NCBI GenBank assembly: GCA_964507185.1
Contig: CAZDOY010000014.1
Location: 3,298 to 67,297, forward strand
Direction of reading: 5' to 3'
From: an uncultured Thermoanaerobaculia bacterium
Lineage (GTDB): Bacteria; Acidobacteriota; UBA4820; DSQY01
Length of the DNA stretch: 64,000 bases
A program made the translations under genes and the position numbers. Every line of letters begins with the position of its first letter. The first letter of the stretch is position 1. The notes under the pieces are model-generated. The model was not told the DNA's origin. It searched no databases and saw only the letters and a list, made by a program, of their open reading frames with translations. Positions 17,901 to 62,466 of this stretch are shown here, in pieces.

Positions 17901-18348
17901 TTTCGCTCCACACGTAGAACCTGCGCGCCCGGCTGCCGGCGGGTGCCCTGCGCGCCCGCTGAAACCACGGGTGCTGGTCGGAGGTGTGGTTGATGACCAT
18001 TTCGGTGATCACCTTCAACCCCCGATTGTGCGCTTCATTGAGGAAGCGCTTGAAGTCCTTCACCGTCCCGTAGTCCGGGTTGACGCTGCAGTAATCGGCG
18101 ATGTCGTACCCGCCGTCCCTCAGCGGCGACGGGTAGAACGGCAGGAGCCACAGCGCCGTGACACCCAGGTCGCTCAGGTAATCGAGTTTCTCCGTCAGGC
18201 CGGCGAAATCTCCCGACCCGTCGCCATCCGAGTCCTTGAAGGCGCGGACGTGAAGCTCGTAGATGACGGCGTCCTTGTACCACCGGGGGTGTCCTTCCTG
18301 TCCCTGTGCACGCGATGTCTTCGGCTTCGTCATGGGTTCTTTCCGCAT
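14953..18348 (-). CDS. treS: Trehalose synthase (maltose alpha-D-glucosyltransferase) fused to maltokinase
   Basis: WYKDAVIYELHVRAF, GMRLDAVPYL, LLAEANQW, FLRNHDELTLE; C-terminal EQSNTSI, HGDFHLGQVL, VIDFEGEP. Start placed at the TGATG overlap with the glgE stop (alternative start 18333). The ORF-track extension to 19278 is spurious. Confidence 0.93.
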   Translation of the reverse strand: MRKEPMTKPKTSRAQGQEGHPRWYKDAVIYELHVRAFKDSDGDGSGDFAGLTEKLDYLSDLGVTALWLLPFYPSPLRDGGYDIADYCSVNPDYGTVKDFKRFLNEAHNRGLKVITEMVINHTSDQHPWFQRARRAPAGSRARRFYVWSETRDRYAGTRIIFPDFENSNWAWDPVAKAYYWHRFYSHQPDLNFDNPDVRRAILKVVDFWFGMGVDGMRLDAVPYLFEREGTNCENLPETHVFLKELRAHVDARFKDKMLLAEANQWSEDAAAYFGEGDECHMNFHFPLMPRLFMSLSAEDRFPLVDILQQTPRIPESCQWAIFLRNHDELTLEMVTDEERSHMYRAYAADPQARINIGIRRRLAPLLGNDRRKIELLNALLLSLPGTPVLYYGDEIGMGDNIFLGDRDGVRTPMQWSSDRNGGFSNTNPQRLYLPLILDQSYHYAAVNVETQQGNPNSLWWLMKRLIAMRNQHRAFGWGSFEFVYPQNNKVLAYLRRHEGGVILVVANLSRHAQQAEIELEGFEGYTPVELFGRTRFGKVRDCPYCLALNPYGFYWFELEAPVHEDAIAHRQAEGELPVLSVPRNGWDSILKGRNVRRLERALPRYLLGSRWFGGKSRTISGVEVLDVIWMQGRARGDRAALVLLDVAYQEGDAETYLLPVAFMQGQEGQALLEAHPAAAICWLDLSGRGGRGLLYDAVYSQMLPRRLLDLFARRRQVEAGRGVLATHRNAKINGGVRKAAEDLQAEVVGAEQSNTSIIYDEAFVLKLYRKLERGENPELEIGRFLTESAGFPHAPQLAGHISYEVRKQAPMTLGVLHRYVENHGDAWTYTLNVLSHFFDRILTHAAFASGPPEEYLDRRPLLERSAGEINQEGVDLVGAYVESARLLGIRTAEMHIALASRSEDPRFSPELFTTLYQRSLYQSMRNLARQTLDLLSERRGAVPQSKADLVRRVLANDKAVNERFKRLLGRKLDANRIRCHGDFHLGQVLNTGKDFAVIDFEGEPARSLAERQLKRSPFRDVAGMLRSFHYAAYQAFKHQVEIGMIKRGQEEPAKAWADFWYTTVSGEFLRSYMETAGESPVLAVSEATAGLLLGAYLLDKAVYELGYELNNRPAWVDIPLTGILWLVETEP

Positions 18349-34712: not shown

Positions 34713-36194
34713 TCAGCGCGAGCGGAGTGTCTCTATGCGGCGGATGAACTCTTCGAGGATGAGCCTGTAGAGCCCGTCGCCCAGGGTCCCATCTTCCACG
34801 CCCGCGTCGATGTTGGGGTTGTCGTTGACCTCTATCACGAAAGCCCCCTTGTCCGTCATCTTGACGTCCACACCGTAGAGGCCGTCTCCGATCAGGTTGG
34901 CCGACTTGAGGGCCGCCTCCAGCACCTTTGCAGGCACCTCGTCCACGGGAAGGGTCTTGAACCCCCCTTCCGTGAATCGGCCCGAAGCGCTGTGTTTGAC
35001 GATCTGCCAGTGGTACTTCGACATGAAGTACTGGCAGGCATAGAGGGGTTGGCGCCTCAGGATGCCGATGCGCCAGTCGTATTCGGTGTACATGAACTCC
35101 TGGGCCAGGATAAGGTCCGAATCCGTGAACAGCTTCTTGCAGATGGCCTTCAGTTCGCTGAAGTTGTTTACCTTGTATATCCCTCTGGAGAACGAGCTGT
35201 CCGGGATCTTCAGGACCATCGGATAGGGAATGGAGGCCTCGAGCTTCTGCAGCGCCTTCGTTCCAACTTCCTGCAGAATAACCGTCTTGGGGGTGGGGAC
35301 CTTGTGGGCCGCGAGCAACTCGGCCAGGTAGACCTTGTTGGTGCACTTGACAATGGAATCGGGATCGTCGATGACGGCCATGCCCTCGTTCTCGGCCTTC
35401 TTCGCGAAACGGTAGGTGTAGTGTTCGATTTCGGTCGTCTCTCTAATGAAGAGCGCGTCATACTCGGCCAGCTTCGAGTAGTCCCGCCGCTCGATCAGGT
35501 CCACGCTGATACCGAGTTTCTCCCCTACTTTGACGAACTTCTGAAGGGCCCGCTTGTTGGACGGGGGCAGGCGCTCCGCCGGGTTGTACAGAACGGCCAG
35601 GTCGAAACGCTTGTGGTTCTTCGCTCTTGGACGGTGCCATGGCTTACTGCGGTGATATTCGAACGCTTCGATGAACTTTTCTTCCTGCTCCGGTGTCAGT
35701 CCGTGCAGGTGGGCGGCTTTGATGGCCGAGATGTGCCAATTGCCCTGCAGGCGGAATTCTACCTTGAGGAGCGGGCACTGGAAAAGGTCGAATATCTGGC
35801 GGGCCAGCTCAGGGAACTGCCCCTGTCTGCATCGCCCGAAAAAAATGTCCATCTCGAAGGCGTTGCGTTGATCGAGGCCCAGACTTTTCTTCAGGCCCTT
35901 CTGAACGGTCTCGTCCAGATCTTCGACGTTGAGACTGTAAATGGCTTTGCTGCTCAGATCGTTGATCGTCCTGACGGTCGGAATGACCTTGTGGCGACGC
36001 GCCTGCGCCAGCAGAGAACAGTAGTACCCGATGGTGAGATAGCCGTAGCTGCGGCACAGGTTGACGATCTTCGCATCCCGGAGTTTGAAATACTGCGACT
36101 GGTCCAGGTAATCCTTCGCCAGGACCACTCTGACATCGGGATAGGAGGTCTTCCAGTCCTTCAGGTTTTCGATTAAGACGATCTGCTGAGACAT
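34713..36194 (-). CDS. RimK-family ATP-grasp ligase with an extended N-terminal (RLAN-type) domain
   Basis: IVNLCRSYGYLTIGYYCSLLAQAR; YDALFIRETT; CTNKVYLAELL; VLKIPDSSFSRG; QEF; YGVDVK; VIEVNDNPNID. Confidence 0.9.
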   Translation of the reverse strand: MSQQIVLIENLKDWKTSYPDVRVVLAKDYLDQSQYFKLRDAKIVNLCRSYGYLTIGYYCSLLAQARRHKVIPTVRTINDLSSKAIYSLNVEDLDETVQKGLKKSLGLDQRNAFEMDIFFGRCRQGQFPELARQIFDLFQCPLLKVEFRLQGNWHISAIKAAHLHGLTPEQEEKFIEAFEYHRSKPWHRPRAKNHKRFDLAVLYNPAERLPPSNKRALQKFVKVGEKLGISVDLIERRDYSKLAEYDALFIRETTEIEHYTYRFAKKAENEGMAVIDDPDSIVKCTNKVYLAELLAAHKVPTPKTVILQEVGTKALQKLEASIPYPMVLKIPDSSFSRGIYKVNNFSELKAICKKLFTDSDLILAQEFMYTEYDWRIGILRRQPLYACQYFMSKYHWQIVKHSASGRFTEGGFKTLPVDEVPAKVLEAALKSANLIGDGLYGVDVKMTDKGAFVIEVNDNPNIDAGVEDGTLGDGLYRLILEEFIRRIETLRSR

Positions 36195-36238
36195 CTTGAC
36201 TCCTCACCACTCAGCAATGTGCGCTGCGCCGCCGACCT

Positions 36239-37399
36239 TTAGGCCCGACGCTTCGTCCGCCGCCTGCCACCACCGGGACCGCGTTTTGGGGCCGGTCCTC
36301 CTGCGGGAGACCTTCCGATAAACAATGCGGCCTTCAGCCCGGCTTTGCCATACCTCGCCATGCGTTCGAAGTCCTTCTTCAGGATGGGCATGTTCATGCT
36401 GTCGGTGGCCGACTTGTGCGCCTCCAGGTCCACAAAGGAATCGTGGACGTAGATGAAGCGATCGTCGAGACCGGTCACCACGACCCAGTGAGGGGAGTTC
36501 TCGTGGTAGATCCTTCGGGAGCTGATAAGAACAAGCGGGATGAGCTTCGCCTCGACGCGGTCTTGTATGTCGGACATTCCAGGCGTCCCGTAGTGCAGGG
36601 TGATGGGATAGTTCCGGATCTCTTCGAGCATGTCTTCCTGGACCAGGCGAATGACTTCCTTCTTTTCCTCGCTGCGGACGCTCCTGGTGAACAGTGCGCC
36701 GTCATCGTTAACGAAGATCTCCACGCAGAAACCGCGATGGAGAGCCGACAGCGCAAGACCGTACGGACCGCATCCGCCATGGCCCGCGGTCATGAAGATG
36801 CTGGTGGACTCGCGCCATATTCTGAGTTCGAGTTTCCTGTTCAGGTCCAGGTTGGGATCGAGCGCCTTCATGGCCATCATCAAGGCTGAAGGCCCGCACG
36901 TGAAATCCAACGTCTGCATATAGAAAGGCACGCTCACGAGGTTCGGTTTGAGGTGGGGAATGAGGAACTTCTCGAATCGCAGGGCCGCCTGATGGTCCTC
37001 GTAGTAATCCTCGATTACGCCGAAACGACGGTAGCCGCTCTTGTCGTAGAGCCGGATGGCGGCCTCGTTATCGTTCCTCACCTCGAGCCTCATGCTGACG
37101 CAATCGTGCTCTCTCGCGGCCTCTTCCGAAGCGCCAAGCAGCATGGCACCGATCCCGAGGCCGCGGCTCGCCGGATCAACCGCCACCGAGTACAGGCGTG
37201 CCAGGGACGTTCCGGTGTTGAACAGGAGCATGGCGTAGCCGCACATCCTGCCGCCTTCTAAGGCAACGAGCGTGAGTGCGTTTGCCCGGCTGAGAAGATA
37301 TCGAAAATTCCGCCGCGATAAACGGTCCAGATCGAAACAGCGCGCTTCCAGAGCGACCAGTCCTTCCAGATCATCGAGTCCGCCCAGCCGTATGTCCAT
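36239..37399 (-). CDS. GNAT acetyltransferase fused to a peptidase C39-like (DUF3335-type) domain
   Basis: LYSVAVDP..RGLGIG..LL; LEVRNDN..AIRLYDKSGY; then YMQTLDFTCGPSAL (Cys), SPHWVVVTG (His), YVHD (Asp). Confidence 0.88.
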   Translation of the reverse strand: MDIRLGGLDDLEGLVALEARCFDLDRLSRRNFRYLLSRANALTLVALEGGRMCGYAMLLFNTGTSLARLYSVAVDPASRGLGIGAMLLGASEEAAREHDCVSMRLEVRNDNEAAIRLYDKSGYRRFGVIEDYYEDHQAALRFEKFLIPHLKPNLVSVPFYMQTLDFTCGPSALMMAMKALDPNLDLNRKLELRIWRESTSIFMTAGHGGCGPYGLALSALHRGFCVEIFVNDDGALFTRSVRSEEKKEVIRLVQEDMLEEIRNYPITLHYGTPGMSDIQDRVEAKLIPLVLISSRRIYHENSPHWVVVTGLDDRFIYVHDSFVDLEAHKSATDSMNMPILKKDFERMARYGKAGLKAALFIGRSPAGGPAPKRGPGGGRRRTKRRA

Positions 37400-37622
37400 T
37401 GCCGCGCTCCAGCGGCGCCGCACGATGCTTGAAGCCGGCGGCGCCTTTGCGGTCTATTATGAGCGCATGGAGCGAAAAATAAAGCCCCGGGAAGGGCCCG
37501 CATATCCCGCCCGGGCTCACCCGTAAGTCGGTTAGAGACGAATCTCGGTCAAAGCACTATAATGGGAGCTCATCAGTTTCCGGGCCGTCGAACGGCATCC
37601 GCAAACGTGGATACATTCATGA

Positions 37623-38199: not shown

Positions 38200-38320
38200 A
38201 CCCCTGTTCGTAAAGGGAAACATCAGAGGCTTTACAATCTGTGCAAGAAGGTGAACTCTTCTCCTATTTATTCTTATTTATTATAGCTCTTATCCCATCC
38301 GTTCCGAGTGTTCTCCCGAG

Positions 38321-38336
38321 TGGCAGGCTTCTTGCT
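38321..38336 (+). promoter_or_regulatory. sigma54 (-24/-12) promoter candidate
   Basis: TGGCAGGCTTCTTGCT against the consensus TGGCACG-N4-TTGC(A/T); 67 nt upstream of the GGDEF-EAL gene. Confidence 0.7.
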
Positions 38337-38402: not shown

Positions 38403-40904
38403 GTGAAGCATCGGGTGGAGGCAAAGTTGGCTGGAAAGGTCACAAAGAAACTGCTCGAAGTCGTTCTGAGGCACTCGCCCAACGCGGTATGCGTGCTGGC
38501 CGAGGACGGGCGGTTCTGCTACGCGAACGATGCGGCCATTTCCGCGCTCGGCTACGAGCAGGCCGACATGGCCGGCCTGAATTTCTTCGAGCGGGTGCAT
38601 CCGGACGACATGTCCCGCCTGAAGGACCGCCTTGAACGGGCGGAAGACGGGGAGTACGCGTCGGCTTCGGTCATCATCCGGGTCCTCAAGGGCGGCGACC
38701 GCTGGACCACCATGGAGGCCTTCGTCACACGTGAGGGCGACGAAGCCGATTCTCCTCTCCTCCTGGTCTATTTGAGCGATACGTCCCGGAGACTTGAAAC
38801 GGAGGGGCGCCTTAAGAAGCTCTCGAGCGCCGTCGAGCACATAGATGAATCCGTCGTGATCACCAACAGGAACGGTGTCGTCGAATACGTGAACAACGCC
38901 TTCGAGAGAACGACCGGCTACACCAAGGAGGAGGTCATCGGAAAGACCCCCGCCATCCTGAAATCCGGCAAACACGACCAGGCCTTCTACAAGTGGATGT
39001 GGGACACGATCCTTGCCGGCGAGTCCTTCCACGGCACCGTCATCAACAAGAGGAAAGACGGCACGCTCTACTATGAACAAAAGACAATTTCGCCCCTCAT
39101 AGATGCGGATGGAATCGTGACCCACCACGTTGCGACCGGCATGGACGTCACCCACAACAAGCTCGCCGAAGAGCGTCTCAGGGCGGGAGTCGAACGCTAT
39201 GCGCTGTCCGTGAGGGGCGCGAACGACGGGCTCTGGGACTGGGACTTCCGGACGGGGCACCTCCATCTCTCCGAGCGCTGGAAAACCATGCTGGGCTTAT
39301 CGAGGGACGAACTCGGCAATACCATCGACGATTGGTTCCGTCTCGTCCATCCCGACGACCTCGCCGAATTGAAAACGCTCATGAAGGCCCATATCGAAGG
39401 CACGACCTCCCACTTCGAGCACGAACACCGGATGCGCCACAAAGACGGAGGGTACTGCTGGGTCCTGACCCGCGGGCTGGTCGTGCGGGACAGCGACGCC
39501 AAGGCCTACAGAATGGCGGGCTCTCAGACGGACATCACGGACAGAAAGATGGCCGAGGAGCAGCTTCAGCACGACGCCCTCCACGACGCCCTGACGGGGC
39601 TTCCCAACCGGACGCTTTTCATGGACAGGCTCGGTCTGGCCATCGCCAGGGCCAAGAGGAGCGAGACGTGCCACTTTGCGGTGATGTTCATGGATCTCGA
39701 CCGGTTCAAGATCATCAACGACAGCCTCGGTCACCTGGCCGGGGACCAACTGCTCATCGAGCTGGCCAACAGGGTCAAGGGGTGTCTTCGAGCGTCGGAT
39801 ACGGTCGCCCGCCTGGGCGGAGACGAATTCGCCATGCTTCTTGAAAACACCCAGAGTGACAAAGAGATCACGCTTTTCGCCGAGAGGGTTCAGACTTGTA
39901 TCGCCGAGCCCTTCCGGATCGGATCGCGCGACGTCTTCACCTCTGCGAGTATCGGAATCGCGCAATATGACGACGCGTACAGCCGGCCGGATGACATGGT
40001 CCGGGACGCCGACACCGCCATGTACCACGCCAAGAATCACGGAAAGGCCCACTATACGGTCTTCTCACCCAGCATGCGATCGAGGGCGCTTCAGATCCTC
40101 GACCTGGAAACGGGTCTGAGGCGGGCGATCGAATCCCAGCAACTGACGGTCCACTACCAGCCCATCGTGTCGCTGAAGTCCGGGCGAATATTCGGATTCG
40201 AGGCCCTTTCCCGGTGGCCGCATCCCGAACGCGGCTTTATCTCGCCCGAGGAATTCATCCCGCTCGCGGAAGAGACAGGCCTCATAAACACCATCGGCCT
40301 GCTCGTTCTGCGAAAGGCCTGTCTCTACCTCAAGTCCATCCAGGGGCGGTTCCGGACCCACCCGCCGCTTACCATGAGCGTGAACCTCTCGGGCATCCAG
40401 TTCATGCGCCCGGAACTCCTCGGCCAGGTGGACCTCATGCTGAGGGAGTACGGGTTGGACCCCCGGACCCTCAAGCTGGAAATCACCGAAAGCGTCATCA
40501 TCGACCACGCCGAGTACGCGCGCGAAATGATCGACCAGATGAAGGCCCAGAATATTCGCCTCAGCATCGACGACTTCGGAACGGGGTATTCTTCCCTCCG
40601 CAGCCTCAGGCAGTACCCCATCGACACGGTCAAGATAGATCAGTCCTTCGTCGCCACCATGTGCGAGAACGAAGAGAGCCTCGAGATCGTTCGGACCACC
40701 GTATCCATGGCCCACAAGCTCCGAATGGAGGTGATTGCGGAGGGCGTGGAAGCGAAGAAGCAGATGGACCTCCTTGCATCCATGGACTGCGACTTCGGAC
40801 AAGGCTTTTACTTCGCCCGGCCGATGGAACAGGATGCCGCCGACGCCATACTGGCGCGCCAGAGCCATTGGTGGCAGGGGGAAGCGATCGACGCCGAAGC
40901 CTGA
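38403..40904 (+). CDS. Cytoplasmic PAS-PAS-PAS-GGDEF-EAL c-di-GMP enzyme
   Basis: Three PAS/PAC units; HDALTGLPNR, RLGGDEF with an RxxD I-site (RASD); FEALSRW, IDDFGTGYSSL, KIDQSF, IAEGVE are all intact. Confidence 0.95.
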   Translation: MKHRVEAKLAGKVTKKLLEVVLRHSPNAVCVLAEDGRFCYANDAAISALGYEQADMAGLNFFERVHPDDMSRLKDRLERAEDGEYASASVIIRVLKGGDRWTTMEAFVTREGDEADSPLLLVYLSDTSRRLETEGRLKKLSSAVEHIDESVVITNRNGVVEYVNNAFERTTGYTKEEVIGKTPAILKSGKHDQAFYKWMWDTILAGESFHGTVINKRKDGTLYYEQKTISPLIDADGIVTHHVATGMDVTHNKLAEERLRAGVERYALSVRGANDGLWDWDFRTGHLHLSERWKTMLGLSRDELGNTIDDWFRLVHPDDLAELKTLMKAHIEGTTSHFEHEHRMRHKDGGYCWVLTRGLVVRDSDAKAYRMAGSQTDITDRKMAEEQLQHDALHDALTGLPNRTLFMDRLGLAIARAKRSETCHFAVMFMDLDRFKIINDSLGHLAGDQLLIELANRVKGCLRASDTVARLGGDEFAMLLENTQSDKEITLFAERVQTCIAEPFRIGSRDVFTSASIGIAQYDDAYSRPDDMVRDADTAMYHAKNHGKAHYTVFSPSMRSRALQILDLETGLRRAIESQQLTVHYQPIVSLKSGRIFGFEALSRWPHPERGFISPEEFIPLAEETGLINTIGLLVLRKACLYLKSIQGRFRTHPPLTMSVNLSGIQFMRPELLGQVDLMLREYGLDPRTLKLEITESVIIDHAEYAREMIDQMKAQNIRLSIDDFGTGYSSLRSLRQYPIDTVKIDQSFVATMCENEESLEIVRTTVSMAHKLRMEVIAEGVEAKKQMDLLASMDCDFGQGFYFARPMEQDAADAILARQSHWWQGEAIDAEA

Positions 40905-43417: not shown

Positions 43418-43912
43418 ATGAACGAGCGACTGCGCCGCTTCCTCTTTCCTTCGATCACACCCGCCTTCCTGATCCGGGTGGTCTTGGTGGCTGTCTGTGC
43501 CTACGTCTTCTTCGGATTCGTCTGCACCCCTTTCGTGGTCAGGGGACGAAGCATGGTGCCGACTTACCACGACGGGGCTTTTGACTTTCTCTGGAAACCG
43601 AGGTTCCTGTTTTCCGGCCCGGAGCGTGGAGACGTAGTCGCCATAAGCCTTGCGGGTGACAGCGTGGTCTACCTGAAGCGCGTGGTTGCCCTGGGCGGCG
43701 ATACAGTTTCCTTCAAGGAAGGCGTCCTTTACGTGGACGGCAAGGCGGTCGATGAACCCTACGTCAGGGGCCCGTGTCACTGGAACCTCCGCCCACGCAA
43801 AGTGGAACCCGGCAGGGTCTACGTCGTGGGCGACAACAGGAGCATGCCGATGGAACAGCACGATTTCGGACAGGTCTCGGTCAGGCGCATCGTCGGGAGC
43901 CCGGTATGGTGA
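43418..43912 (+). CDS. lepB: Signal peptidase I (short, Gram-positive-like type)
   Basis: One TM helix; GRSMVPT (Ser), YLKRVVALGGD (Lys), VVGDNR, FG.V…IVG. Confidence 0.9.
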   Translation: MNERLRRFLFPSITPAFLIRVVLVAVCAYVFFGFVCTPFVVRGRSMVPTYHDGAFDFLWKPRFLFSGPERGDVVAISLAGDSVVYLKRVVALGGDTVSFKEGVLYVDGKAVDEPYVRGPCHWNLRPRKVEPGRVYVVGDNRSMPMEQHDFGQVSVRRIVGSPVW

Positions 43913-44403
43913 CCTGGAAACGCCTCGGCGCCTTTCTGGCCGTGATTCTTGCGGCCTGGGCGATCTACTACTTCTTCCCTTCACGCACGCGCCAGGTCAA
44001 GCGCCGTTTCAAGGCCATCTCGGAATGGGTGGACAAAACCGGCCCGGAGGGCAACCTGGCGATGGCCAGGGAGGCCTCGGAGGCGGCCGATTTCTTCGCG
44101 CCCCAGTGCACGTGGGATGCGCAGTCCTACGACCTCAACGGCTCCTTCACGCCCCGCGACGCCGCGCGCTATTACTTCGCGGGCCGCGAGCGTTTTTCAA
44201 GCCTTTCGCTCAAGTTCTACGATGTGGGGGTCGGCTTTCCCGAGAAATACAAGGCGGACGTCACGGCGACGGCCCGGATTACGGGTACGACGAGGGAAGG
44301 CGAGAAGGTGAGCGAAACGCACGAAGTCCAATGCTCCCTCAGGAAGACCGACGGCACGTGGCGACTGACCCACGTAACCGTCGTGCAGGTGCTCCAGAGA
44401 TAA
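43906..44403 (+). CDS. Membrane-anchored hypothetical protein, possibly NTF2/SnoaL-like fold
   Basis: Start overlaps the lepB end; N-terminal TM (LGAFLAVILAAWAIYYFF); helix-then-strand pattern ending KTDGTWRLTHVTV. The fold call is an inference. Confidence 0.7.
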   Translation: MVTWKRLGAFLAVILAAWAIYYFFPSRTRQVKRRFKAISEWVDKTGPEGNLAMAREASEAADFFAPQCTWDAQSYDLNGSFTPRDAARYYFAGRERFSSLSLKFYDVGVGFPEKYKADVTATARITGTTREGEKVSETHEVQCSLRKTDGTWRLTHVTVVQVLQR

Positions 44404-44494
44404 TGAAATCTGATTTCGTGATGAGGCTGCCTATCCCCGGGGATGAGGTGTGCTACGCCGATGGTGCGCGAACCGCCCAATCCTCTCCAGCCCG

Positions 44495-44920
44495 TCAGTA
44501 AGCGATGGGCGGATCCTTCGAAGCGCTCTGAAAGGAAAGCCCCAGGACGACGTTGTCGTCCTTGATCGTGCTGTACGTGACGACGGCGTCAACATACCCG
44601 TTCGCAAAGGTGCACACGACGTGTATGTGCCACTCGATGCCGTCCACTTCCGTGGCCTTCACCTCGCGGTCCTGGAAGGGACCGAATTCGTCGAGAAGGG
44701 ACTGCCACTTCTTCTGGAGCCGTTCCGCCGTCAGGGTCTTGGCCAGCTCCGGCGAAAACTGCCCCACGGCCTGCTCGAAGTTGCCGGCGCTGATCAGGTC
44801 CACGACGTAGCTCGCCTCGTCCGCAGGCGCGGCACCCAGCGCGTCGCCCGAACCGAGGTACTGCGCGCGCGCCACCAGGCAGACGGACAAGAGAAGGGGC
44901 AGGACCAGGAGCTTCTTCAT
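44495..44920 (-). CDS. Exported DUF3887-like protein
   Basis: Signal peptide MKKLLVLPLLLSVCLVARA; L.AG.FEQAVGQF..ELAK.LT.E.LQKKWQ.L..EFGPF pattern; AAGGAG RBS. Confidence 0.7.
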   Translation of the reverse strand: MKKLLVLPLLLSVCLVARAQYLGSGDALGAAPADEASYVVDLISAGNFEQAVGQFSPELAKTLTAERLQKKWQSLLDEFGPFQDREVKATEVDGIEWHIHVVCTFANGYVDAVVTYSTIKDDNVVLGLSFQSASKDPPIAY

Positions 44921-44974
44921 GACGGGCGTCTCCTTGATGCGGCCCGGCCCGCACATGGGCCGGATACCGGAATG

Positions 44975-45601
44975 CTATCGCCTGTGCCTTCCCGCGTGCC
45001 CGCCCGCGTGCCCGCCCCTGGAGGGCATCGGGGACGGCATGGGCATGGGCATCGGCCTGGGGCTGAAGCGGGGGCGGCCGCGCGGCACACGCACGGGAGG
45101 CGCCGTGTTCACCGGCGGGCGCCTTCGGTGACGGACGCGGTCGGCCGAGGCACCGCCCCTGCGAGGATTCTCGTTCTGGATGACGACGGGTTTCGGAGCC
45201 GGATGCGCGTGAGGGTGCCCATGCCGGGAACGATGCCGGTATATCCAGGGATCAGGCAGAAAACCCCGGTAGAGGTTATTCCAACCCGTCCAGAGGTACA
45301 TGCCGCCGTAGTAGCCGTGCCAGTCGTACCAGCCGCCACCCAACATCCAGTTCATGTACCACTGCGGCCCCCATCCCGGCCAGTCCCAGGGCGCCCACTC
45401 CGCGCTGAAATAGTCGGGCGTCCAGTCGTATCCGTACCAGCTCCCGCAGTTCCATGCCCAAACCGGGCCGCCCGCGGATACGGTCATGACCGAGAAAGGT
45501 CGAACCGGGAAGACGGGGCTGGCCGCCGAGTGCGAGACCGGCACGGCAAGGCACACGATTGCGAGGGTCGCGGCGACCAGGATTGCCTTGTGCTTCATCA
45601 T
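44975..45601 (-). CDS. Secreted Trp/Tyr-rich protein with an Arg/Pro-rich tail, paralog 1
   Basis: GGAGG RBS 6 nt before the ATG at 45601; signal peptide MMKHKAILVAATLAIVCLAVPVSHSA; two blocks of clear homology to 46082..46666. Confidence 0.8.
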   Translation of the reverse strand: MMKHKAILVAATLAIVCLAVPVSHSAASPVFPVRPFSVMTVSAGGPVWAWNCGSWYGYDWTPDYFSAEWAPWDWPGWGPQWYMNWMLGGGWYDWHGYYGGMYLWTGWNNLYRGFLPDPWIYRHRSRHGHPHAHPAPKPVVIQNENPRRGGASADRVRHRRRPPVNTAPPVRVPRGRPRFSPRPMPMPMPSPMPSRGGHAGGHAGRHRR

Positions 45602-45710
45602 TTCAAACCTCCCAAGCGCGGGTTTCATGGCATATCCCCTTCTCTCCGCGGCCTGGAGGCCGCATGATCCGAGCGGCCCTGGACTCGATCCAATGACGAT
45701 ACGACAAATC

Positions 45711-45733
45711 AAGCTAGCCCGCTGCCAATGACA
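45711..45733 (-). promoter_or_regulatory. sigma54-type promoter candidate for paralog 1
   Basis: GTCAT-TGGCAGCGGGCTAGCT; GG and GC at canonical -24/-12 spacing; matched by the paralog 2 promoter. Confidence 0.6.
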
Positions 45734-45809
45734 ATATAGGGTGCAAACCCGCCGCGTGCACAGGTTGCGCCCGGCTGTCAGGTCCCGGCCTGTTCTCGAC
45801 CTCGAATTT

Positions 45810-45827
45810 AGTCCGAAAAACCGGACA
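45810..45827. promoter_or_regulatory. Near-palindrome AGTCCG-N6-CGGACA, candidate enhancer (UAS) for paralog 1
   Basis: 83 bp from the -24 box; the same motif recurs at 46877. Confidence 0.6.
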
Positions 45828-45846
45828 CTCTTGCGGCGGCCGGTGC

Positions 45847-45996
45847 GATGCCCCGGCGATCTTCGGCAACAACGTCTTTCTGGCCAACGGCTGGTACGAG
45901 ATCACCGTCAGTGTCGACGGCGGCCCGCCCGCCAGATTCCGGTTCGGCGTAGGGGCTCACAACGATGCCGAAACGCCCCTCAACATGAACGACTGA
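45847..45996 (+). pseudogene. Orphan 3' gene fragment (DAPAIFGNNVFLANGWYEITVSVDGGPPARFRFGVGAHNDAETPLNMND*)
   Basis: Strong GC3 codon bias and a protein-like sequence. No in-frame ATG, GTG or TTG occurs between the upstream stop (45715-45717) and this block. Confidence 0.45.
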
Positions 45997-46081
45997 GCGC
46001 CTCGGGGGCCTTCCTCCCGGCTTGCAGGGTCCATCTCCACCACACCGATCGGGTCTTCCTGCGATAACAGACAGGGCATGT

Positions 46082-46666
46082 TCAGCGCCCGTGCCGGCCG
46101 CCGCCGCCCGCGGCAACCACCGGTGCTCTCGGCATCATCACCGGCGCGGAGGGCATGGGGCGCGGGCGCACGCGGGGACGGCCACGGGGAACCCTGGCCG
46201 GAGCAGCGCTGGTTTCGGATGGCCGCCTTCGGCCTTTCACGCTTTTGCTGGAAGCGCCGCCGTGTCGCGGGTGCGCGTTTTGTATTTCGACCGGCCCCGG
46301 AGCATTATGCCGGTCCTGATCGCCGCGGCGGTGGGGTCTCCAGTACTTCCACGCAAAGGGCACGTAACCCTTGTAGAAATAGTAGTTCCCGCCGGTCCAC
46401 CACAGGTGCGGCACGTACGACAGGCTTTGGAGACCCAGCCCGGAACCGTTCCAGGGCGCCCACTCCGCGCTGAAGTAGTCGGGCGACCACTCCACTCCCG
46501 ACCACGCCCCGCAGGACCAGGCCCAGACGGGGCCGCTGCCGGAGATCATCGTTATCCTGAAGGAGCTGACGGGAAAAAGCCCTCTCGCCGAGAGACCGGT
46601 CACCGGAATGGCGGTGAGCAATAGGACGAATGCCGCCCATACGATGAATCTCTTCTTTTTACTCAT
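46082..46666 (-). CDS. Secreted Trp/Tyr-rich protein with an Arg/Pro-rich tail, paralog 2
   Basis: Signal peptide MSKKKRFIVWAAFVLLLTAIPVTGLSA; homology blocks shared with paralog 1. Confidence 0.8.
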   Translation of the reverse strand: MSKKKRFIVWAAFVLLLTAIPVTGLSARGLFPVSSFRITMISGSGPVWAWSCGAWSGVEWSPDYFSAEWAPWNGSGLGLQSLSYVPHLWWTGGNYYFYKGYVPFAWKYWRPHRRGDQDRHNAPGPVEIQNAHPRHGGASSKSVKGRRRPSETSAAPARVPRGRPRVRPRPMPSAPVMMPRAPVVAAGGGGRHGR

Positions 46667-46777
46667 TTCGCCGACCCCCTTATCGAAGCTCTAATATCAC
46701 CGCTTCTGTTCAAAAAGCCTCTGGCCCCATGTCCTATTTGTCCTGGCAGTCGTACTCACGGGTTCCATTTTGTCACG

Positions 46778-46799
46778 AGCAAGCCGTATGCCGATGACG
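46778..46799 (-). promoter_or_regulatory. sigma54-type promoter candidate for paralog 2
   Basis: GTCAT-CGGCATACGGCTTGCT; GGCA…TTGCT at canonical spacing. Confidence 0.65.
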
Positions 46800-46876
46800 T
46801 TCCTGCGACCAAATGCGAGCCCCGCAAAGTCCTACGGCAATGACGGGGCAGCCTTTCCGTCCAGGATGACGGAGCC

Positions 46877-46894
46877 TGTCCGGAATTGCGGACA
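46877..46894. promoter_or_regulatory. Perfect palindrome TGTCCG-N6-CGGACA, candidate enhancer (UAS) for paralog 2
   Basis: 84 bp from the -24 box, just past the hflC stop. Confidence 0.65.
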
Positions 46895-46904
46895 CAGGCG
46901 GCCG

Positions 46905-47870
46905 CTAGCGCATGCGCTTCAGGTACCGGTACAGCTCCGAATCCGTGGAGAGGATCATGACGCCCCGGTCGTCCATCGTCGTGCGGTAGGTCTTGAGCGT
47001 TTCCACGAAGCGGTACAGGTCGGGGTCCCGACTGTAGGCCTCTGCGTAGATCTTCGTGGACTGGGCCTCGCCGTCGCCGAGTATCTCCTGCGCTTTCCGG
47101 TAGGCCTCGGACTGGATCCGCTTGGACTCCTCCGTGACCTGCCCGGCAATCTCGGCCTTCTTGCCCTGCCCGAGCGCCCTGTATTTTTCCGCGATCCTCA
47201 GCTGCTGGCTGATCATCCGGTCGTAGACCTTGCGAAGCACCTTCTGGGTGTAGTCGAGGCGCTTGATCTCCAGATCCACGAGGTCTATCCCGAGGTTGAG
47301 CTCCTTAAGGCGCTTCTTTGCCGCCTTCGTGATTTCCGTTGTCAGTTCTTCCCGCAGGCCCCTCACGGGCTCCTGGGCATCCTTGGAGTCCGAGCCGCCC
47401 GACATGCCGCCCTCCGATGCCTCGATGGCCTCCTCCCCCAGGTCCATGTGCCTGTTCGAGGATCGAACGACTTCGAGAAGCGTATGCGCCGATAGAGTGT
47501 CTCTCACGAGTCCGTCGAGAATGTCGTCGAGCCGACCCTGGCCGCCCTCCTGGTTGGTCACTTTCTTGTAAAAAGTCAGGGCGTTCGAAATGCGCCACCT
47601 GGCAAAGGAGTCCACGAAAATGAACTTGGAGTCCTTGGTCGGGATCACCTCGGGATCGCCGTCCCACTCCAATATCCGCTTGTCAAAATAATGGACATCC
47701 TGTACGAGCGGGATCTTCCAGTGCAGACCGGCTTGCGTGACCGGCTGCCCCACAGGGGAGCCGAGCTGGACGACGACCGCCTGCTCGTACTCGGGGACGG
47801 TGAAGAGGAACATCTTGCCCAGGATTATGAGGACGACCAGGAGAACGACGCCCGCGATGACCTTTCTCAT
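46905..47870 (-). CDS. hflC: Protease modulator HflC (SPFH domain)
   Basis: N-terminal TM; GLHWKIPLVQDV..FDKRIL, VDSFARWRI, VYDRMISQ, IYAEAYSRDPDLYRFVETLKTY. Confidence 0.92.
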   Translation of the reverse strand: MRKVIAGVVLLVVLIILGKMFLFTVPEYEQAVVVQLGSPVGQPVTQAGLHWKIPLVQDVHYFDKRILEWDGDPEVIPTKDSKFIFVDSFARWRISNALTFYKKVTNQEGGQGRLDDILDGLVRDTLSAHTLLEVVRSSNRHMDLGEEAIEASEGGMSGGSDSKDAQEPVRGLREELTTEITKAAKKRLKELNLGIDLVDLEIKRLDYTQKVLRKVYDRMISQQLRIAEKYRALGQGKKAEIAGQVTEESKRIQSEAYRKAQEILGDGEAQSTKIYAEAYSRDPDLYRFVETLKTYRTTMDDRGVMILSTDSELYRYLKRMR

Positions 47871-48877
47871 TGGGCACCTCCTTTCTTCCCGGTCGTCCCC
47901 GCCGACCGGAAATCGAGGAGAGGCATCATGTTCTTAAGCGATTCATCCACCACGTAGACCTGACGGAGGCGCGGCAGGACCTGTCGCATGGTCTCCAGGA
48001 AGAGACGGCGGCGTGTCACCTCCGGCGCCTTTCGATACTCCCGAAGGAGCTTCGTAAAGCGCGCCGCGTCACCTTTCGAGCGGTTGATCCTCTCCACCCG
48101 GGTGCCTTCGGCCTCCTTGACGGTCTGTTCGGCCTCGCCCTTGACCCTGTAAATGACCTTGTTGTACTCCTGGTAGGCCTGGTTGATGGCCTGGTCCATT
48201 TCCTGGCGCGCCCGGTTGACCTCGTCGAACGAGTCCTTGACCGGGGCCGGGGGATGGACGTCCTGGAGCTGGACCAGCTTGATATCCACACCGCAGTTAT
48301 ACAGATCGAGCATCTTCTGCATCCTGTCCTTGACGGCCAGTTCGATGGCCTGCCGCTTCAGGCGGATGACCTCGTTGAAGGACTCGTCCCCGACCACGGC
48401 CCGCATGGTGGCTTCGGAAACGTCCCTGATTGTGCCCGGAACGTCCCTGACGGCGAAGAGATACTTTCTGGGATCGCGGATGCGATATTGAACCACCCAC
48501 GTCACCGTGGCGATATTCTGGTCCCCGGTTAGCATGTCCGATTCTTTCGTGTAGTCCTCTTCGGAGTAGTGCGACCGCACTCCGGCTCTATCGGTTCTGA
48601 AGCCGAATTCTTCCTTGAACTGGTAGTCGGTCTTAACCAGGTAGACCTTGTCCACGCCGAATGCGATCTTGAGGTGCGGCCCCGGTTTTGCCGATTTAAT
48701 GTAGCGCCCGAAGCGCAGGACCACCCCCCTCTCGTTGGGCTCCACCTGGTAGTAGGACGTCGCCACCAGGACGATCAGCACGATGAGCGCCAAGCCTCCG
48801 GTTATCGCCCTCGCCGTGCCCTTAGGGGACAGCCCTCGTTTCAGGTTGTCCACCGCGTCTTTGAACCTGTCGTCCAT
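47867..48877 (-). CDS. hflK: Protease modulator HflK (SPFH domain)
   Basis: VVLRFGRY, MLTGDQNIA, VQYRIRDP, VQLQDVHPP, FDEVNRARQ, A.GD..RF, TRRRLFLETM; ATGA overlap with hflC. Confidence 0.92.
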   Translation of the reverse strand: MDDRFKDAVDNLKRGLSPKGTARAITGGLALIVLIVLVATSYYQVEPNERGVVLRFGRYIKSAKPGPHLKIAFGVDKVYLVKTDYQFKEEFGFRTDRAGVRSHYSEEDYTKESDMLTGDQNIATVTWVVQYRIRDPRKYLFAVRDVPGTIRDVSEATMRAVVGDESFNEVIRLKRQAIELAVKDRMQKMLDLYNCGVDIKLVQLQDVHPPAPVKDSFDEVNRARQEMDQAINQAYQEYNKVIYRVKGEAEQTVKEAEGTRVERINRSKGDAARFTKLLREYRKAPEVTRRRLFLETMRQVLPRLRQVYVVDESLKNMMPLLDFRSAGTTGKKGGAQ

Positions 48878-49124
48878 TCTCTCTCCCTCCCCGATGCGTA
48901 CACTGAGCACGAGATCACGTGGCCGCGACTGCGTCCGGCGGTTCCTCCTCGGTCGATCGTCGCGTCGGCCTTACCTGGCGATCCTCCTGTTGCGTCTTTT
49001 CAATGTTACCAGCCGATGCGCATCGGGACAAATGCCCCGACAACCGTCACGACCGCCGCGCCTGTCGTTGAGTCAGGTCCCCGTGACGGCCGTCACGCTT
49101 GCCGCTACGCCTCCCCCGAGGCTA

Positions 49125-60013: not shown

Positions 60014-62131
60014 CTATTGCCCGTAGGTGATCACCACCTTGCCGAGGTCTTTCGACACCCTCAAGCCGTTTCCGCTGTAACCGTACAACTCGTAAAAGAT
60101 CAGCGGACTCGCGTCGGCCGACAGGTCGCTCGTATCGTGGTCGAACGGAACGCCGGAGGAGAAATCCGGGTGTTCCACGTCATCGGCCAGGTCCAGGGCG
60201 GGCCTTGCAGGATACTGCGCCACAAAGATCTGGTCCGAAGGCGGAGCCTGGGGGCTGAGCTGGTAGACATCGGCGTTTCTGAGGAGGGTCAGCGCGTAGA
60301 TCCTGAAGGTATCGTCTGCGATGATCGGATTGGTGGAACCGTCGTAGACGCCGTCGTATTCTCCGGGCGGAGCATGGCCCGCAGGATAGACCACGGAATG
60401 GTAGAGCCCGTACGGCGTCGATGGGCTGGCGATCAGGGATCCGGCTAGGTTCCCGAAGCTGTCGCTCACCGGCGTCACCGTCCCTACCTGCGCCCCCATC
60501 CCGAAGTAGAAGGCCACATTGTAGTGCACGAGCGGCGCAAAGATGCCGTGCATGTAGACGGTGGAACCCGGCGCGACGTTCAGGAAGCGGTCGCTGGGTA
60601 CGGCGTGAGAAGTATCCGCATAGGAGGCCCACGTAGGCTCCGGCCCCTGCCTGCACTCGCTGCCAGAGGCATCGACGATATAGGCGCCGACGATCTTCGA
60701 GGCCTCATATCCCGTGTCGTCGACGGCCGTGACCTTGACGAGATACTGACCGCCCGCCAGGGACGAGGTGTCCCAGACTACTCCCCAGTCGTTGAACGAC
60801 GAGCCTATGCCGTCCGGTGCGAGGTGCCCGTTCGTGTCGGGATTCATACTGCCCCCCACCACGGCCATGTTGGACCATATCCCCCCGTCGTCCTCAATCC
60901 CGTTGCCATTCGAGTCGGGATAGTAGGCAAAGGACACGTGCGCTATGGTATCGTCGACCATGTCTCCCGTCACGGTCAGGGTATCCGCCAGGGCAACACG
61001 CACCGTGACTGACGCATGGCAGTCGATTTCCGACAGGGTCATGTCGCCGATCTTGGGCGCCCGCGCCAGACCATCCCGCAGCGTAATGAAGTCCATGTAC
61101 GGGAAGCGTTCGCCGCAGGACGCGGTGTAGCAAAGGTTCGACGCGTAGTCTTTTTGAAGCGGGTCCGTGTTGCTGTTTGACGTACTGTAGCCAAACGCCA
61201 TGGGGGTGTCGGGCCCGACGAGACGCGCGCCTCCGGCACCGCCGTTGTAGGCATCCGTCAAGGCATCCACTGGAAACTGGAAATCAACGAAGTAACCCCG
61301 TCCCCACGTCGCATTGGAAGCACCGTGAACGACCAGACGGCTCCGTCCGAAGTCCCACGCAGCGCCATCGGCCGTTGGATCTTGGGGCACCACGGCATCC
61401 TTCGTTCCGGCGTTTCCCCACCACACGAGGTCACCGGGCGCAGACAACGTGTTGTTGGAAACGATTTCCGGGGCGACGCACTGGCTTTGCAGGTCGTTGA
61501 AGTAGATCTTCAGGTCGTCACCGTCGTTCACGGCAGGCGGAACGCTGAGGTCCTTGTTCTTTCCGCCTCCGCTGTCCCCGTCCAGCACGACGGTGAATTC
61601 CTTGTACCCGTCCCCGTCGCACTCGATGAGCAGGTTGTACGTCACGTTGCCCCAGGGATCGCCGCCCGTCCTGGTCCCCGCCGTTTCCGCGCTCGCGGTC
61701 AGCGGCATGGCGTCCAGCCGGATCCTGTAATAGAAGACTCCGGCATCGGTGTTGTAGGCGAAGTAGGCACTGGGTAAGTAAGGCGCATCCCCACTCGCTA
61801 TCTCGACCGCCCCCGCCGGCCTCGAACCGCCCGTGGAACAGTCCTCTTTGCCCGTCTGATCCCTTATTGGCGCTCCGGCCTGCGTGTATGCCACCCAGCC
61901 TCCGGCCCCGAGATCTTCTGCGGGCCAGTCGGCAGGCGCCTGGTTGAGAGCGGCCTTCGAGTTCCTGCCTTCTGCCGGTTGGCCCGCCGAACCGGTGCCG
62001 GGCAGCACGCCGGCTCCGTAAGCCGTGCCGCCCGCGAGGGAAATAATCAGGAGAACGGCCACAACGCACCGCTTCGCCGCGCCGGAACTCGCTCCCATCC
62101 CGTGATGGTCCTGCACTCTGCTTATGAACAT
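60014..62131 (-). CDS. Exported hypothetical protein (about 706 aa): N-terminal beta-sandwich-like domain, Ig-like domain and C-terminal module
   Basis: Signal-like VVAVLLIISLAGGTAYG; YYRIRLD; D-rich loops (DGDSGGG, DSNGNGIEDDGG); WDTSSLAGGQYLVKVTAVD Ig-like motif. Confidence 0.8.
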   Translation of the reverse strand: MFISRVQDHHGMGASSGAAKRCVVAVLLIISLAGGTAYGAGVLPGTGSAGQPAEGRNSKAALNQAPADWPAEDLGAGGWVAYTQAGAPIRDQTGKEDCSTGGSRPAGAVEIASGDAPYLPSAYFAYNTDAGVFYYRIRLDAMPLTASAETAGTRTGGDPWGNVTYNLLIECDGDGYKEFTVVLDGDSGGGKNKDLSVPPAVNDGDDLKIYFNDLQSQCVAPEIVSNNTLSAPGDLVWWGNAGTKDAVVPQDPTADGAAWDFGRSRLVVHGASNATWGRGYFVDFQFPVDALTDAYNGGAGGARLVGPDTPMAFGYSTSNSNTDPLQKDYASNLCYTASCGERFPYMDFITLRDGLARAPKIGDMTLSEIDCHASVTVRVALADTLTVTGDMVDDTIAHVSFAYYPDSNGNGIEDDGGIWSNMAVVGGSMNPDTNGHLAPDGIGSSFNDWGVVWDTSSLAGGQYLVKVTAVDDTGYEASKIVGAYIVDASGSECRQGPEPTWASYADTSHAVPSDRFLNVAPGSTVYMHGIFAPLVHYNVAFYFGMGAQVGTVTPVSDSFGNLAGSLIASPSTPYGLYHSVVYPAGHAPPGEYDGVYDGSTNPIIADDTFRIYALTLLRNADVYQLSPQAPPSDQIFVAQYPARPALDLADDVEHPDFSSGVPFDHDTSDLSADASPLIFYELYGYSGNGLRVSKDLGKVVITYGQ

Positions 62132-62466
62132 GGCCTGCACCCCTCTCCCAAGGAAGGATCCGCAAGGGTGAATCGCTATCCCCGCAACCCCTTTTTTCTG
62201 TCACTTTACCGATATAATGGGTCGATCTTTGAGCAAAAACAAGCGGCGCGGCCCGTATTGCCCGGCCGTTTTGATATTGGGCGCCCTCGCGCAGGGTGGC
62301 CATTCCGGGGGGCTTACACCGCCGATTGGAGCGTGTCCTTCGTGCGCCAAAAGGCCCGTTAGGACCTCGGTCGCCGACCGTTTCTGATGCGGAATACCCG
62401 TTCTGCGGTGTATACTCCCGTTCTTGGGTTTCACCGGGTCCGTATCTTCATGGGAGGAATGAGATC

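Follow-up and report, generated by a model that had tools for sequence, protein, structure and literature searches.

Predicted exported tryptophan-rich paralogs form an orphan, fast-evolving family with a candidate sigma-54-type promoter footprint in uncultured Acidobacteriota

Introduction

What do two adjacent genes for small, tryptophan-rich and apparently exported proteins do for an uncultured acidobacterium, and do they belong to a larger system? The question is raised by a stretch of 64,000 nucleotides (hereafter the window) from an uncultured Thermoanaerobaculia bacterium (contig CAZDOY010000014.1, positions 3,298 to 67,297, of assembly GCA_964507185.1), in which two such genes, here called par1 and par2, lie in tandem on the minus strand. 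The original prediction, made from the sequence alone, described the two proteins as paralogs with a constant-variable-constant layout and proposed that they represent an undescribed extracellular system. The Acidobacteriota are abundant in soils and sediments and their secreted proteins are almost unexplored. Here, we follow up this locus by comparing it with its relatives, its upstream DNA and its neighbours.

Results

Two real genes of an orphan family

par1 and par2 are true paralogs, with 41% identity over 171 columns in BLASTP (E 3e-40). Their coding sequences and parts, all on the minus strand, are as follows.

46082..46666, minus strand: par2 (type 2), a coding sequence of 194 amino acids (aa); an open reading frame (ORF) with a GC content at third codon positions (GC3) of 0.78 and with orthologs
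46586..46666 (approximate), minus strand: par2, predicted signal peptide
46451..46534, minus strand: par2, conserved N-block
46343..46450, minus strand: par2, aromatic core
46085..46342, minus strand: par2, Arg/Pro-rich tail
44975..45601, minus strand: par1 (type 1), a coding sequence of 208 aa (MMKHK...); an ORF with a GC3 of 0.82 and with GGGAGG before its ATG at 45601
45521..45601 (approximate), minus strand: par1, predicted signal peptide
45386..45469, minus strand: par1, conserved N-block
45239..45385, minus strand: par1, Trp/Tyr/Gly core
44978..45238, minus strand: par1, Arg/Pro/His tail

The counts that had first drawn attention to the pair were all reproduced: the 28-aa block GPVWAW..APW is identical at 22 of 28 positions between the two proteins, the best ungapped 50-aa window of the tails at 32 of 50, 15 Trp and 10 Tyr fall within a single 77-aa window of par1, its richest, and nucleotides 45386..45420 and 46451..46485 agree at 34 of 35 positions. 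Against the Trp background of the other 34 genes of the window (1.36%), at least 15 Trp in 77 residues has a probability of about 1.6e-13, and the highest Trp counts of all stop-free 77-aa windows in the six frames of the window both fall in par1 and par2. The near-identical nucleotide block was considered as proof of recent gene conversion, a reading weakened by the finding that TTC AGC GCG GAG TGG is identical in 8 of the 10 family members described below, in which the synonymous sites of the block are nearly fixed as preferred, GC-rich codons. Strict amino-acid conservation and codon bias thus explain much of the identity, to which gene conversion may contribute.

Both composition and divergence mark the two genes as coding. 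Their GC3 compares with about 0.6 at the first and second positions, differences between homologs cluster at third codon positions in every comparison, and dN/dS lies at 0.26-0.48 with dS of up to 1.7 between the paralogs, which indicates purifying selection on both genes. The ratio is 0.32 for par1 against its 90%-identical homolog P0001 and 0.40 for par2 against its orthologs P0005 and P0006 (ortholog identity 64-68%). par1 and par2 are real genes under selection, and the third-position excess, GC3 and dN/dS together identify the long ORFs on the opposite strand as artefacts of GC-rich DNA. Ribosome-binding sites precede both start codons (GGGAGG for par1, AAGGGGG for par2).

As the original prediction had said, the pair could not be assigned to a described family. 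When all 10 members were searched with hmmscan against Pfam-A at E <= 1, 0 families were returned; NCBIfam, PADLOC and PHROG gave no family match for par1, par2 or any other of the 10 (a phrog_4216 match at E 0.021 lay on the signal-peptide helix and was taken as noise), and the best match of a sequence search of the PDB was a cytochrome c at E 0.28, so that no relative of solved structure was found there. The resemblance to YXWGXW-repeat proteins is compositional only, as had been suspected, since the hidden Markov model PF12779 (WXXGXW/YXWGXW) matched none of the 10 members at the same threshold. Those proteins share with the par family a signal peptide followed by Trp/Gly/Tyr-rich sequence, but the par family lacks a regular repeat unit and carries its own Cys-containing block and a polycationic Arg/Pro tail.

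The conserved block also occurs in homologs from other genomes. Word-seeded searches of 5.8 billion clusters returned 8 proteins (clusters at 90% identity), and HMMER, run as a full profile search against 1.84 billion representatives, returned only 3 clusters at 50% identity, including a distant new member, P0008. The 10 sequences that were aligned come from seven source lineages, and every named source genome is a metagenome-assembled genome (MAG) of the Acidobacteriota. A peptide-pattern scan of metagenome contigs gave no further members, nor did a scan of viral contigs; a DNA-pattern scan for the conserved block led to two contigs in which DYFSAEW occurs in metallophosphoesterase-like and ABC-ATPase-like ORFs, a coincidence as judged by eye from the translated ORFs. 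The par genes form an orphan, fast-evolving family limited to one clade of uncultured Acidobacteriota.

The rate of this evolution is apparent at every distance. Relative to the nearest relative (pS about 0.09-0.10), pN/pS is 0.33 for par1 and 0.35 for the DUF3887 gene that follows it, against 0.03-0.17 for seven neighbour genes; par2 orthologs are 64% identical where their neighbours are 81-92% identical, and par1 is 41-48% identical to the P0008 group where the neighbours are 74-79% identical. At equal dS, the proteins of the family evolve 3-10 times faster than their neighbours, a behaviour typical of surface-exposed proteins. Selection is nevertheless purifying, not diversifying, in every segment of all close pairs. 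Among type 2 orthologs, the aromatic middle has the lowest pN (0.03-0.08) and the tail the highest (pN about 0.3, pN/pS 0.5-0.7). The constant-variable-constant layout therefore holds between the two paralogs but not among par2-type orthologs, where the supposedly variable middle is the most conserved part; it is not a diversification cassette, and the locus is better understood as two specialised paralogs.

An aromatic head and a cationic tail

The anatomy of the proteins was drawn from the 10-member alignment, a composition table of nine members and the hydropathy of par1 and par2. The N-terminus has a K/R-rich n-region and an h-region of 14-15 residues (mean of 2.2-2.3 in a 19-residue Kyte-Doolittle window), Ala27 is invariant and is the likely -1 position, with an atypical Leu or Phe at -3 in par2-type proteins, and hydropathy analysis found no second hydrophobic segment in par1 or par2. 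From these features we infer a cleavable, Sec-type signal peptide and export, and the description of both products as exported-looking Trp-rich paralogs stands on that basis. The head that follows is 80-102 aa long, with 23-34% Trp/Tyr/Phe and a net charge between -6 and +3; a near-invariant block, S..GP..AW.CG.W.G..W.PD(Y/F)FSAEW.PW, lies within it and includes one conserved Cys. The tail spans 79-91 aa, of which 16-20 are Arg and 12-18 are Pro, and its net charge is +15 to +21; it contains the conserved core RRR...VPR.RP.V.PRP and ends in GGRHRR or a variant of it. In par1 the head holds 15 Trp and 10 Tyr at a net charge of -4 and the tail carries +18; in par2 the head is 26% aromatic and the tail carries +15. 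This bipartite layout of charge and aromatic residues is kept in 9/9 tabulated members, and in the alignment it is Arg and Pro, rather than His and Met, that the tail conserves. In a charge-hydropathy plot, par1 and par2 have tails that score well within the disordered region (+0.31 and +0.41) and heads that score as compact, which suggests that the tail is disordered. The motif PRGRP, an AT-hook-like core, is found in par1, par2, P0001, P0002 and P0003; its Gly is replaced by R, S or A in P0005-P0007, it is absent from the P0008 group, and the Pfam AT_hook model matched none of the 10 members.

A conserved footprint upstream of each gene

The upstream regions of the eight type 1 and type 2 genes were aligned, and the occurrence of the palindrome described here was counted over 16 loci. 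The elements found in the window are listed below.

46877..46894, minus strand: par2 inverted repeat TGTCCG-N6-CGGACA (TGTC-N10-GACA), about 100 nt upstream of the promoter and just after the hflC stop codon; its core GTCCG-N6-CGGAC occupies 46878..46893
46845..46876, minus strand: second palindrome TCCGTC-N6-GACGGA, 21 bp downstream of the first (centre to centre), in par2-type upstream regions only
46779..46793, minus strand: par2 sigma-54 type -24/-12 element, CGGCATACGGCTTGC, with a predicted transcription start at about 46767
45811..45826, minus strand: par1 inverted repeat GTCCG-N6-CGGAC, spaced from its promoter and start codon as in par2
45713..45727, minus strand: par1 sigma-54 type -24/-12 element, TGGCAGCGGGCTAGC, with a predicted transcription start at about 45701

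Two invariant islands stand out in the otherwise diverged upstream DNA of the eight genes. The first, TGGCA-N6-TTGC(A/T) with the GG-N10-GC spacing by which sigma-54 promoters are recognised, lies at -119..-129 from the start codon in 8/8 genes, and all eight score 9-11 of 12 positions against the sigma-54 consensus TGGCAC-N5-TTGCW, with GGCA and GC invariant; the par1 orthologs in the contigs L011 and L014 have TGGCAG-N5-TTGCA at the same distance. The second island is the palindrome GTCCG-N6-CGGAC at -219..-230, again in 8/8 genes, with invariant arms and a variable loop. Exactly one copy accompanies each type 1 or type 2 gene and none is found elsewhere in the 16 loci. Together the two motifs, which cover 34 columns, contain 18 of the 28 invariant columns (P 9e-8). 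The second palindrome is confined to the par2 type, where its right arm, GGACGGAA, is invariant in 5/5 upstream regions. The predicted 5' untranslated regions (UTRs) of par1 and par2 are each about 100 nt long and show no unusual folding (z -0.6 and -0.15). A TTG at 45712 precedes the transcription start predicted for par1 and so is not its start codon.

These islands point to a promoter that would depend on sigma-54 in vivo, and the palindrome about 100 bp upstream of it is a candidate enhancer, that is, an activator-binding site. Since each gene has its own promoter and palindrome, both paralogs are probably switched on together, and probably by one signal-responsive bacterial enhancer-binding protein (bEBP). 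A palindrome at this distance from a -24/-12 element is the classical arrangement of enhancer-dependent promoters. It has a described counterpart in glmY, where GlrR recognises TGTCN10GACA at a distance of over 100 bp upstream from a sigma-54 promoter (PMC3045617), and the par2 repeat has the same form as the GlrR consensus (PMC3045617). Because the host is an acidobacterium, the par site cannot be assigned to GlrR, and the par upstream DNA differs from that of glmY, ZraP and PspA genes in having one palindrome rather than three. A TGT-N12-ACA shape is also bound by the unrelated regulators PpsR/CrtJ.

Several observations weigh against this interpretation of the upstream DNA. The palindrome could instead be a terminator-like RNA hairpin: it lies just after hflC in most genomes, and as RNA it folds together with a second, adjacent hairpin (z -2.4). 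Single sigma-54-like matches are no rarer than chance in the window (13 found, 11.4 expected), so that the case for sigma-54 rests wholly on conservation. Neither rpoN nor a gene for a bEBP is present in the 64-kb window, and both motifs are missing from the distant P0008 subgroup (L013, L015).

Other scans of the DNA were uninformative: a search for sigma-70 promoters in 44000..47200 found none, seven "terminators" listed for the same range were rejected as chance hits, being unconserved and mostly inside coding sequence, and Rfam at gathering thresholds gave 0 matches in the whole 64-kb window. Elsewhere, an exact sigma-54 -24/-12 match (TGGCAGGCTTCTTGC) was seen at 38321..38335 on the plus strand, 68 nt before a PAS-GGDEF-EAL gene (38403..40904) and after an AT-rich tract (about 38260-38295) that could be an IHF site; it hints that sigma-54 control is used elsewhere in the source genome.

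The DUF3887 partner and the surrounding genes

The genes of the par block lie in the order hflK-hflC-par2-par1-DUF3887 on the minus strand, with convergent genes beyond it.

47867..48910, minus strand: hflK, first in this order
46905..47870, minus strand: hflC, preceding par2
45862..45996, plus strand: pseudogene remnant, the last 44 codons and stop of a gene for a 170-aa exported protein, found by tblastn
44495..44920, minus strand: gene for a predicted exported DUF3887 (NTF2-like) protein of 141 aa, matching PF13026
43906..44403, plus strand: gene for a membrane-anchored SnoaL_4-like protein, convergent with the par block
43418..43912, plus strand: gene for signal peptidase I, 583 nt from the DUF3887 gene, the SnoaL-like gene lying between the two
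no coordinates assigned, plus strand: pepF, for oligoendopeptidase F, convergent with the par block

The co-directional gene for an exported DUF3887 protein that had been noted after par1 was confirmed. The match to PF13026 has 42.2 bits against a cutoff of 31.8 (E 1.3e-10) and covers profile positions 1-82 of 91; the likely start is the ATG at 44920 (MKKLLVL..., with its own ribosome-binding site, AAGGAGA, upstream), which leaves a spacer of 54 nt. The gene is a conserved neighbour of the par1 type, following the par1-type gene in 5/5 contigs (the window, L011, L013, L014 and L015); a stand-alone exported DUF3887 protein is encoded 18-57 nt after every type 1 gene, and the gene is probably co-transcribed with par1. 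DUF3887 has an NTF2-like fold, is extracytoplasmic and is thought to bind small ligands (PMC3924330). The protein that follows par1 is a bona fide member and has a signal peptide, in line with the description of the family (PMC3924330), but it stands alone at 141 aa rather than forming the N-terminal domain of a hydrolase, and that source describes no association of DUF3887 with a Trp-rich protein. A search with the DUF3887 protein returned the same clade only. On inspection, this protein and the W-rich proteins each have a single conserved Cys in the mature region; a complex or a disulfide between them is speculation.

No transporter, modifying enzyme or sortase is conserved around the par genes, and because dedicated machinery of this kind is missing, a system is not demonstrated; none is evident beyond a two-gene operon. 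The signal peptidase I gene beyond the DUF3887 gene recalls loci of the tapA-sipW-tasA type, in which matrix fibre genes come with a signal peptidase of their own, and was considered as a dedicated, SipW-like enzyme. This candidate was rejected: the neighbour is a bacterial-type LepB (TIGR02227, 87.5 bits against a cutoff of 47) on the opposite strand, under very strong constraint and 99% conserved with the nearest relative, and is probably a housekeeping enzyme. A Pfam scan of the 10 members found no homology to TasA or TapA.

Evolution of the locus

The family consists of two orthologous groups and a distant subgroup of the second. Type 2 genes (par2, P0005-7) always follow hflKC, type 1 genes (par1, P0001, P0002) are always followed by DUF3887, and the distant P0008 group is likewise followed by DUF3887. 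In the MAG Bin_51 and in the run SRR33785072, types 1 and 2 lie on separate contigs, and the genes in the type 2 position (P0006, and P0003, a mosaic) are followed by a convergent gene for a 170-aa exported protein. L002, L004 and L006 carry an intact copy of that gene (88-89% conserved), whose product has no Pfam or NCBIfam match; tblastn gave no similarity between it and the SnoaL-like protein, and its candidacy as a paralogous partner was dropped. In the window, the remnant at 45862..45996 retains residues 127-170 only (tblastn, 73% identity, E 2e-19), and the homology breakpoints of three comparisons coincide at 45861-45871. The 44-codon remnant and the coinciding breakpoints suggest that the tandem par2-par1 arrangement is the product of a deletion. 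The tandem layout itself is real, being found with identical proteins on four independent metagenome contigs, but it appears to be a secondary arrangement rather than an original feature of the family.

In the nearest relative (L011, 95% DNA identity), the DNA corresponding to 45872..46910 of the window, which holds both par2 and the remnant, is replaced by 136 unrelated nt. In L014, hflC is directly followed by the type 1 gene and DUF3887. Two side observations concern L011: the 136 nt that replace par2 (L011 7593..7728) appear by eye to contain a long inverted repeat, GGGCGGAAACTTTT ... AAAACTTTTCCCGCC (alignment row), and the hflC of this MAG aligns over 212 of 321 aa only, which suggests a frameshift or an assembly error.

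The mosaic gene P0003 (L002 6001..6657) is par2-like in its 5' part and par1/P0002-like in its 3' part. Up to ...SAEW it is identical to par2 at 54/69 positions against 32/69 to par1; after SAEW it matches P0002 at 101/145 and par1 at 81/138, against 58/123 to par2. The breakpoint falls in the conserved PDYFSAEW block and coincides with the 34/35-identical block of the window.

Other features of the window

Further features of the window were noted in passing. An alpha-glucan cluster at 8409..19278 on the minus strand contains the unusual fusions GH57+DUF3536, GH77 (MalQ)+CBM48/alpha-amylase (1365 aa) and alpha-amylase+maltokinase N-cap (1441 aa). In L013, the distant W-rich gene is directly preceded by a C-terminal ORF fragment that resembles, by eye, the end of a GH57/DUF3536 protein; if so, the genome has been rearranged. 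A 388-aa ORF corresponds to this fragment in L015. At 34713..37423 (minus strand) a gene for a RimK-like ATP-grasp protein with an RLAN domain adjoins one for GNAT+DUF3335 (peptidase C39-like), at 60014..62140 (minus strand) a 708-aa ORF has coding-like GC3 and no Pfam match, and 1186..5658 (plus strand) encodes a beta-helix/He_PIG protein of 1490 aa.

Discussion

The par proteins are a new family at the level of sequence; in kind, we regard them for the present as an unusual variety of exported envelope protein of low complexity. We tentatively propose, in a reading that may well prove wrong, that they are conditionally expressed envelope or matrix proteins whose tail binds polyanions and whose aromatic head self-associates. 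After export, the cationic tail would bind polyanions of the envelope or matrix (lipopolysaccharide, acidic exopolysaccharide or extracellular DNA), and aromatic and cation-pi contacts would let the head self-associate or occupy a membrane or polymer interface; the outcome would be a conditionally produced "sticker" of the envelope or matrix. In the par1 type, DUF3887 may hold or modulate the sticky head. This reading is favoured because the residues conserved in the tail are Arg and Pro, and because head and tail are chemically complementary. It is further favoured by the surface-like evolution of the family and by the bias of sigma-54 regulons towards cell-exterior functions (PMC3162934).

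Besides the objections to the upstream footprint, two results count against this proposal. AlphaFold2 gave no confident model for either protein from the 8-sequence alignment (pLDDT 41.3 and pTM 0.16 with par1 first, 40.1 and 0.15 with par2 first), and these low values may reflect the eight-row alignment rather than disorder. In addition, par2 is dispensable in the nearest relative.

The proposed chemistry resembles that of known adhesive proteins. The mussel foot proteins and the 57-aa loop of Vibrio cholerae Bap1 are built on Tyr(DOPA)/Lys. Like these, the par proteins would be secreted, mostly unstructured chains dense in aromatic and basic residues, for which cation-pi chemistry can be expected; the par family differs in using Trp/Arg, segregated into a head and a tail, and has no homology to either. 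A bolder form of the proposal, which we consider unlikely, is a secreted "cation-pi glue" switched on by sigma-54 and a bEBP, in which intermolecular contacts of the acidic Trp-rich head with the Arg-rich tail and binding to matrix polyanions would build an extracellular coacervate or adhesive scaffold, with the NTF2-like DUF3887 protein as a solubiliser during export. Such a family may have originated de novo within a single acidobacterial clade and, if the idea is true, would be a bacterial analogue of the adhesives of marine invertebrates.

A different function, with a similarly low probability, is that of a secreted antimicrobial (bacteriocin-like) pro-protein, whose Trp/Pro-rich head and Arg/Pro-rich tail would hit the membranes or ribosomes of competitors, perhaps after proteolytic release, with DUF3887 as an immunity or neutralising partner. 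Indolicidin, tritrpticin, Bac7 and PR-39 are animal peptides of 13-60 aa released from cathelin-type precursors, and the par family resembles such Trp/Arg and Pro/Arg host-defence peptides in composition, with W-P-W alternation (EWAPWDWPGWGPQW) and RPRPRP-type cationic stretches; membrane-interface behaviour and polyanion binding would be predicted to be similar. The order of a toxin followed by a small exported partner is kept in 5/5 par1-type loci, pN/pS is raised in both par1 and DUF3887, the presence of par2 differs between close relatives, and P0003 records mosaic recombination. The likeness is compositional only, however, without sequence homology: the par proteins are bacterial, and at about 170-180 aa their mature forms are much larger than the peptides that they resemble. 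DUF3887 is not found next to par2-type genes, nor is the locus linked to any gene for a transporter, for lysis or for processing; PADLOC and Pfam returned no toxin or immunity matches, and selection in all close pairs is purifying rather than diversifying.

More doubtful still is a periplasmic stress-response or metal-buffering protein like ZraP, Spy or PcoE/SilE, in which His/Met/Trp-rich segments would bind metal or unfolded envelope proteins and a sigma-54 activator would induce the genes upon envelope or metal stress. Sigma-54 with an upstream palindrome is the arrangement of zraP and psp-type envelope stress genes, and the product of zraP is likewise exported and has low-complexity segments. 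Par1-type tails contain HGHPHAHP, PMPMPMPSPMPS and GGHAGGHAGRH, P0008 has HHHHRHH, and the genes adjoin hflKC, which encodes a modulator of the membrane protease FtsH. Yet His and Met are unconserved (par2-type tails have 3-5 His and 1-3 Met) where Arg and Pro are invariant, and the high positive charge of the tail should repel metal cations. The LTXXQ/CpxP-Spy-ZraP model and other metal-resistance models of Pfam had no match, and the par products are without homology to ZraP/Spy/CpxP or PspA. The adjacency to hflKC is confined to a narrow clade and the par genes have their own promoter 240 nt away, which makes synteny weak evidence.

Highly improbable is a precursor of a ribosomally synthesised and post-translationally modified peptide (RiPP), or of another processed peptide, with a leader and a follower around a variable core. 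The constant-variable-constant pattern between the paralogs and the nearby peptidase genes (pepF, signal peptidase I, S46) would suit it, but the "variable" core is conserved among orthologs, the proteins have Sec signal peptides and a length of about 200 aa, no YcaO, lanthipeptide, radical-SAM or other maturase gene is adjacent (there is a single radical-SAM gene, some 38 kb distant), and the peptidases are housekeeping types with 94-99% identity. That par1 and par2 are spurious or decaying ORFs, chance frames in DNA whose GC-richness yields long ORFs in many frames, is hardly credible even for a tiny family with par2 missing in the closest relative, given that GC3 reaches 0.78-0.82 in the coding frame only, that the third-position excess and low dN/dS persist over the whole range of dS, and that genes intact in 7 lineages keep their ribosome-binding sites and promoter footprint.

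The locus provides a view of how a lineage-restricted family evolves: by duplication, by juxtaposition through deletion, by loss in a sister strain and by the formation of a mosaic gene. Should the function prove mundane, the analysis would still correct the first reading of this DNA, which is that of an orphan gene pair and not of a demonstrated extracellular system. The enhancer-dependent promoter footprint predicted here, in an organism that is uncultured, could serve to identify the activator and its regulon. We know of no description in bacteria of the Trp/Arg head-and-tail chemistry of these proteins. If the function that we propose for them is right, the par genes would represent a genetically simple material-forming or polyanion-binding protein, encoded by one or two genes with a single promoter and a single candidate enhancer site.

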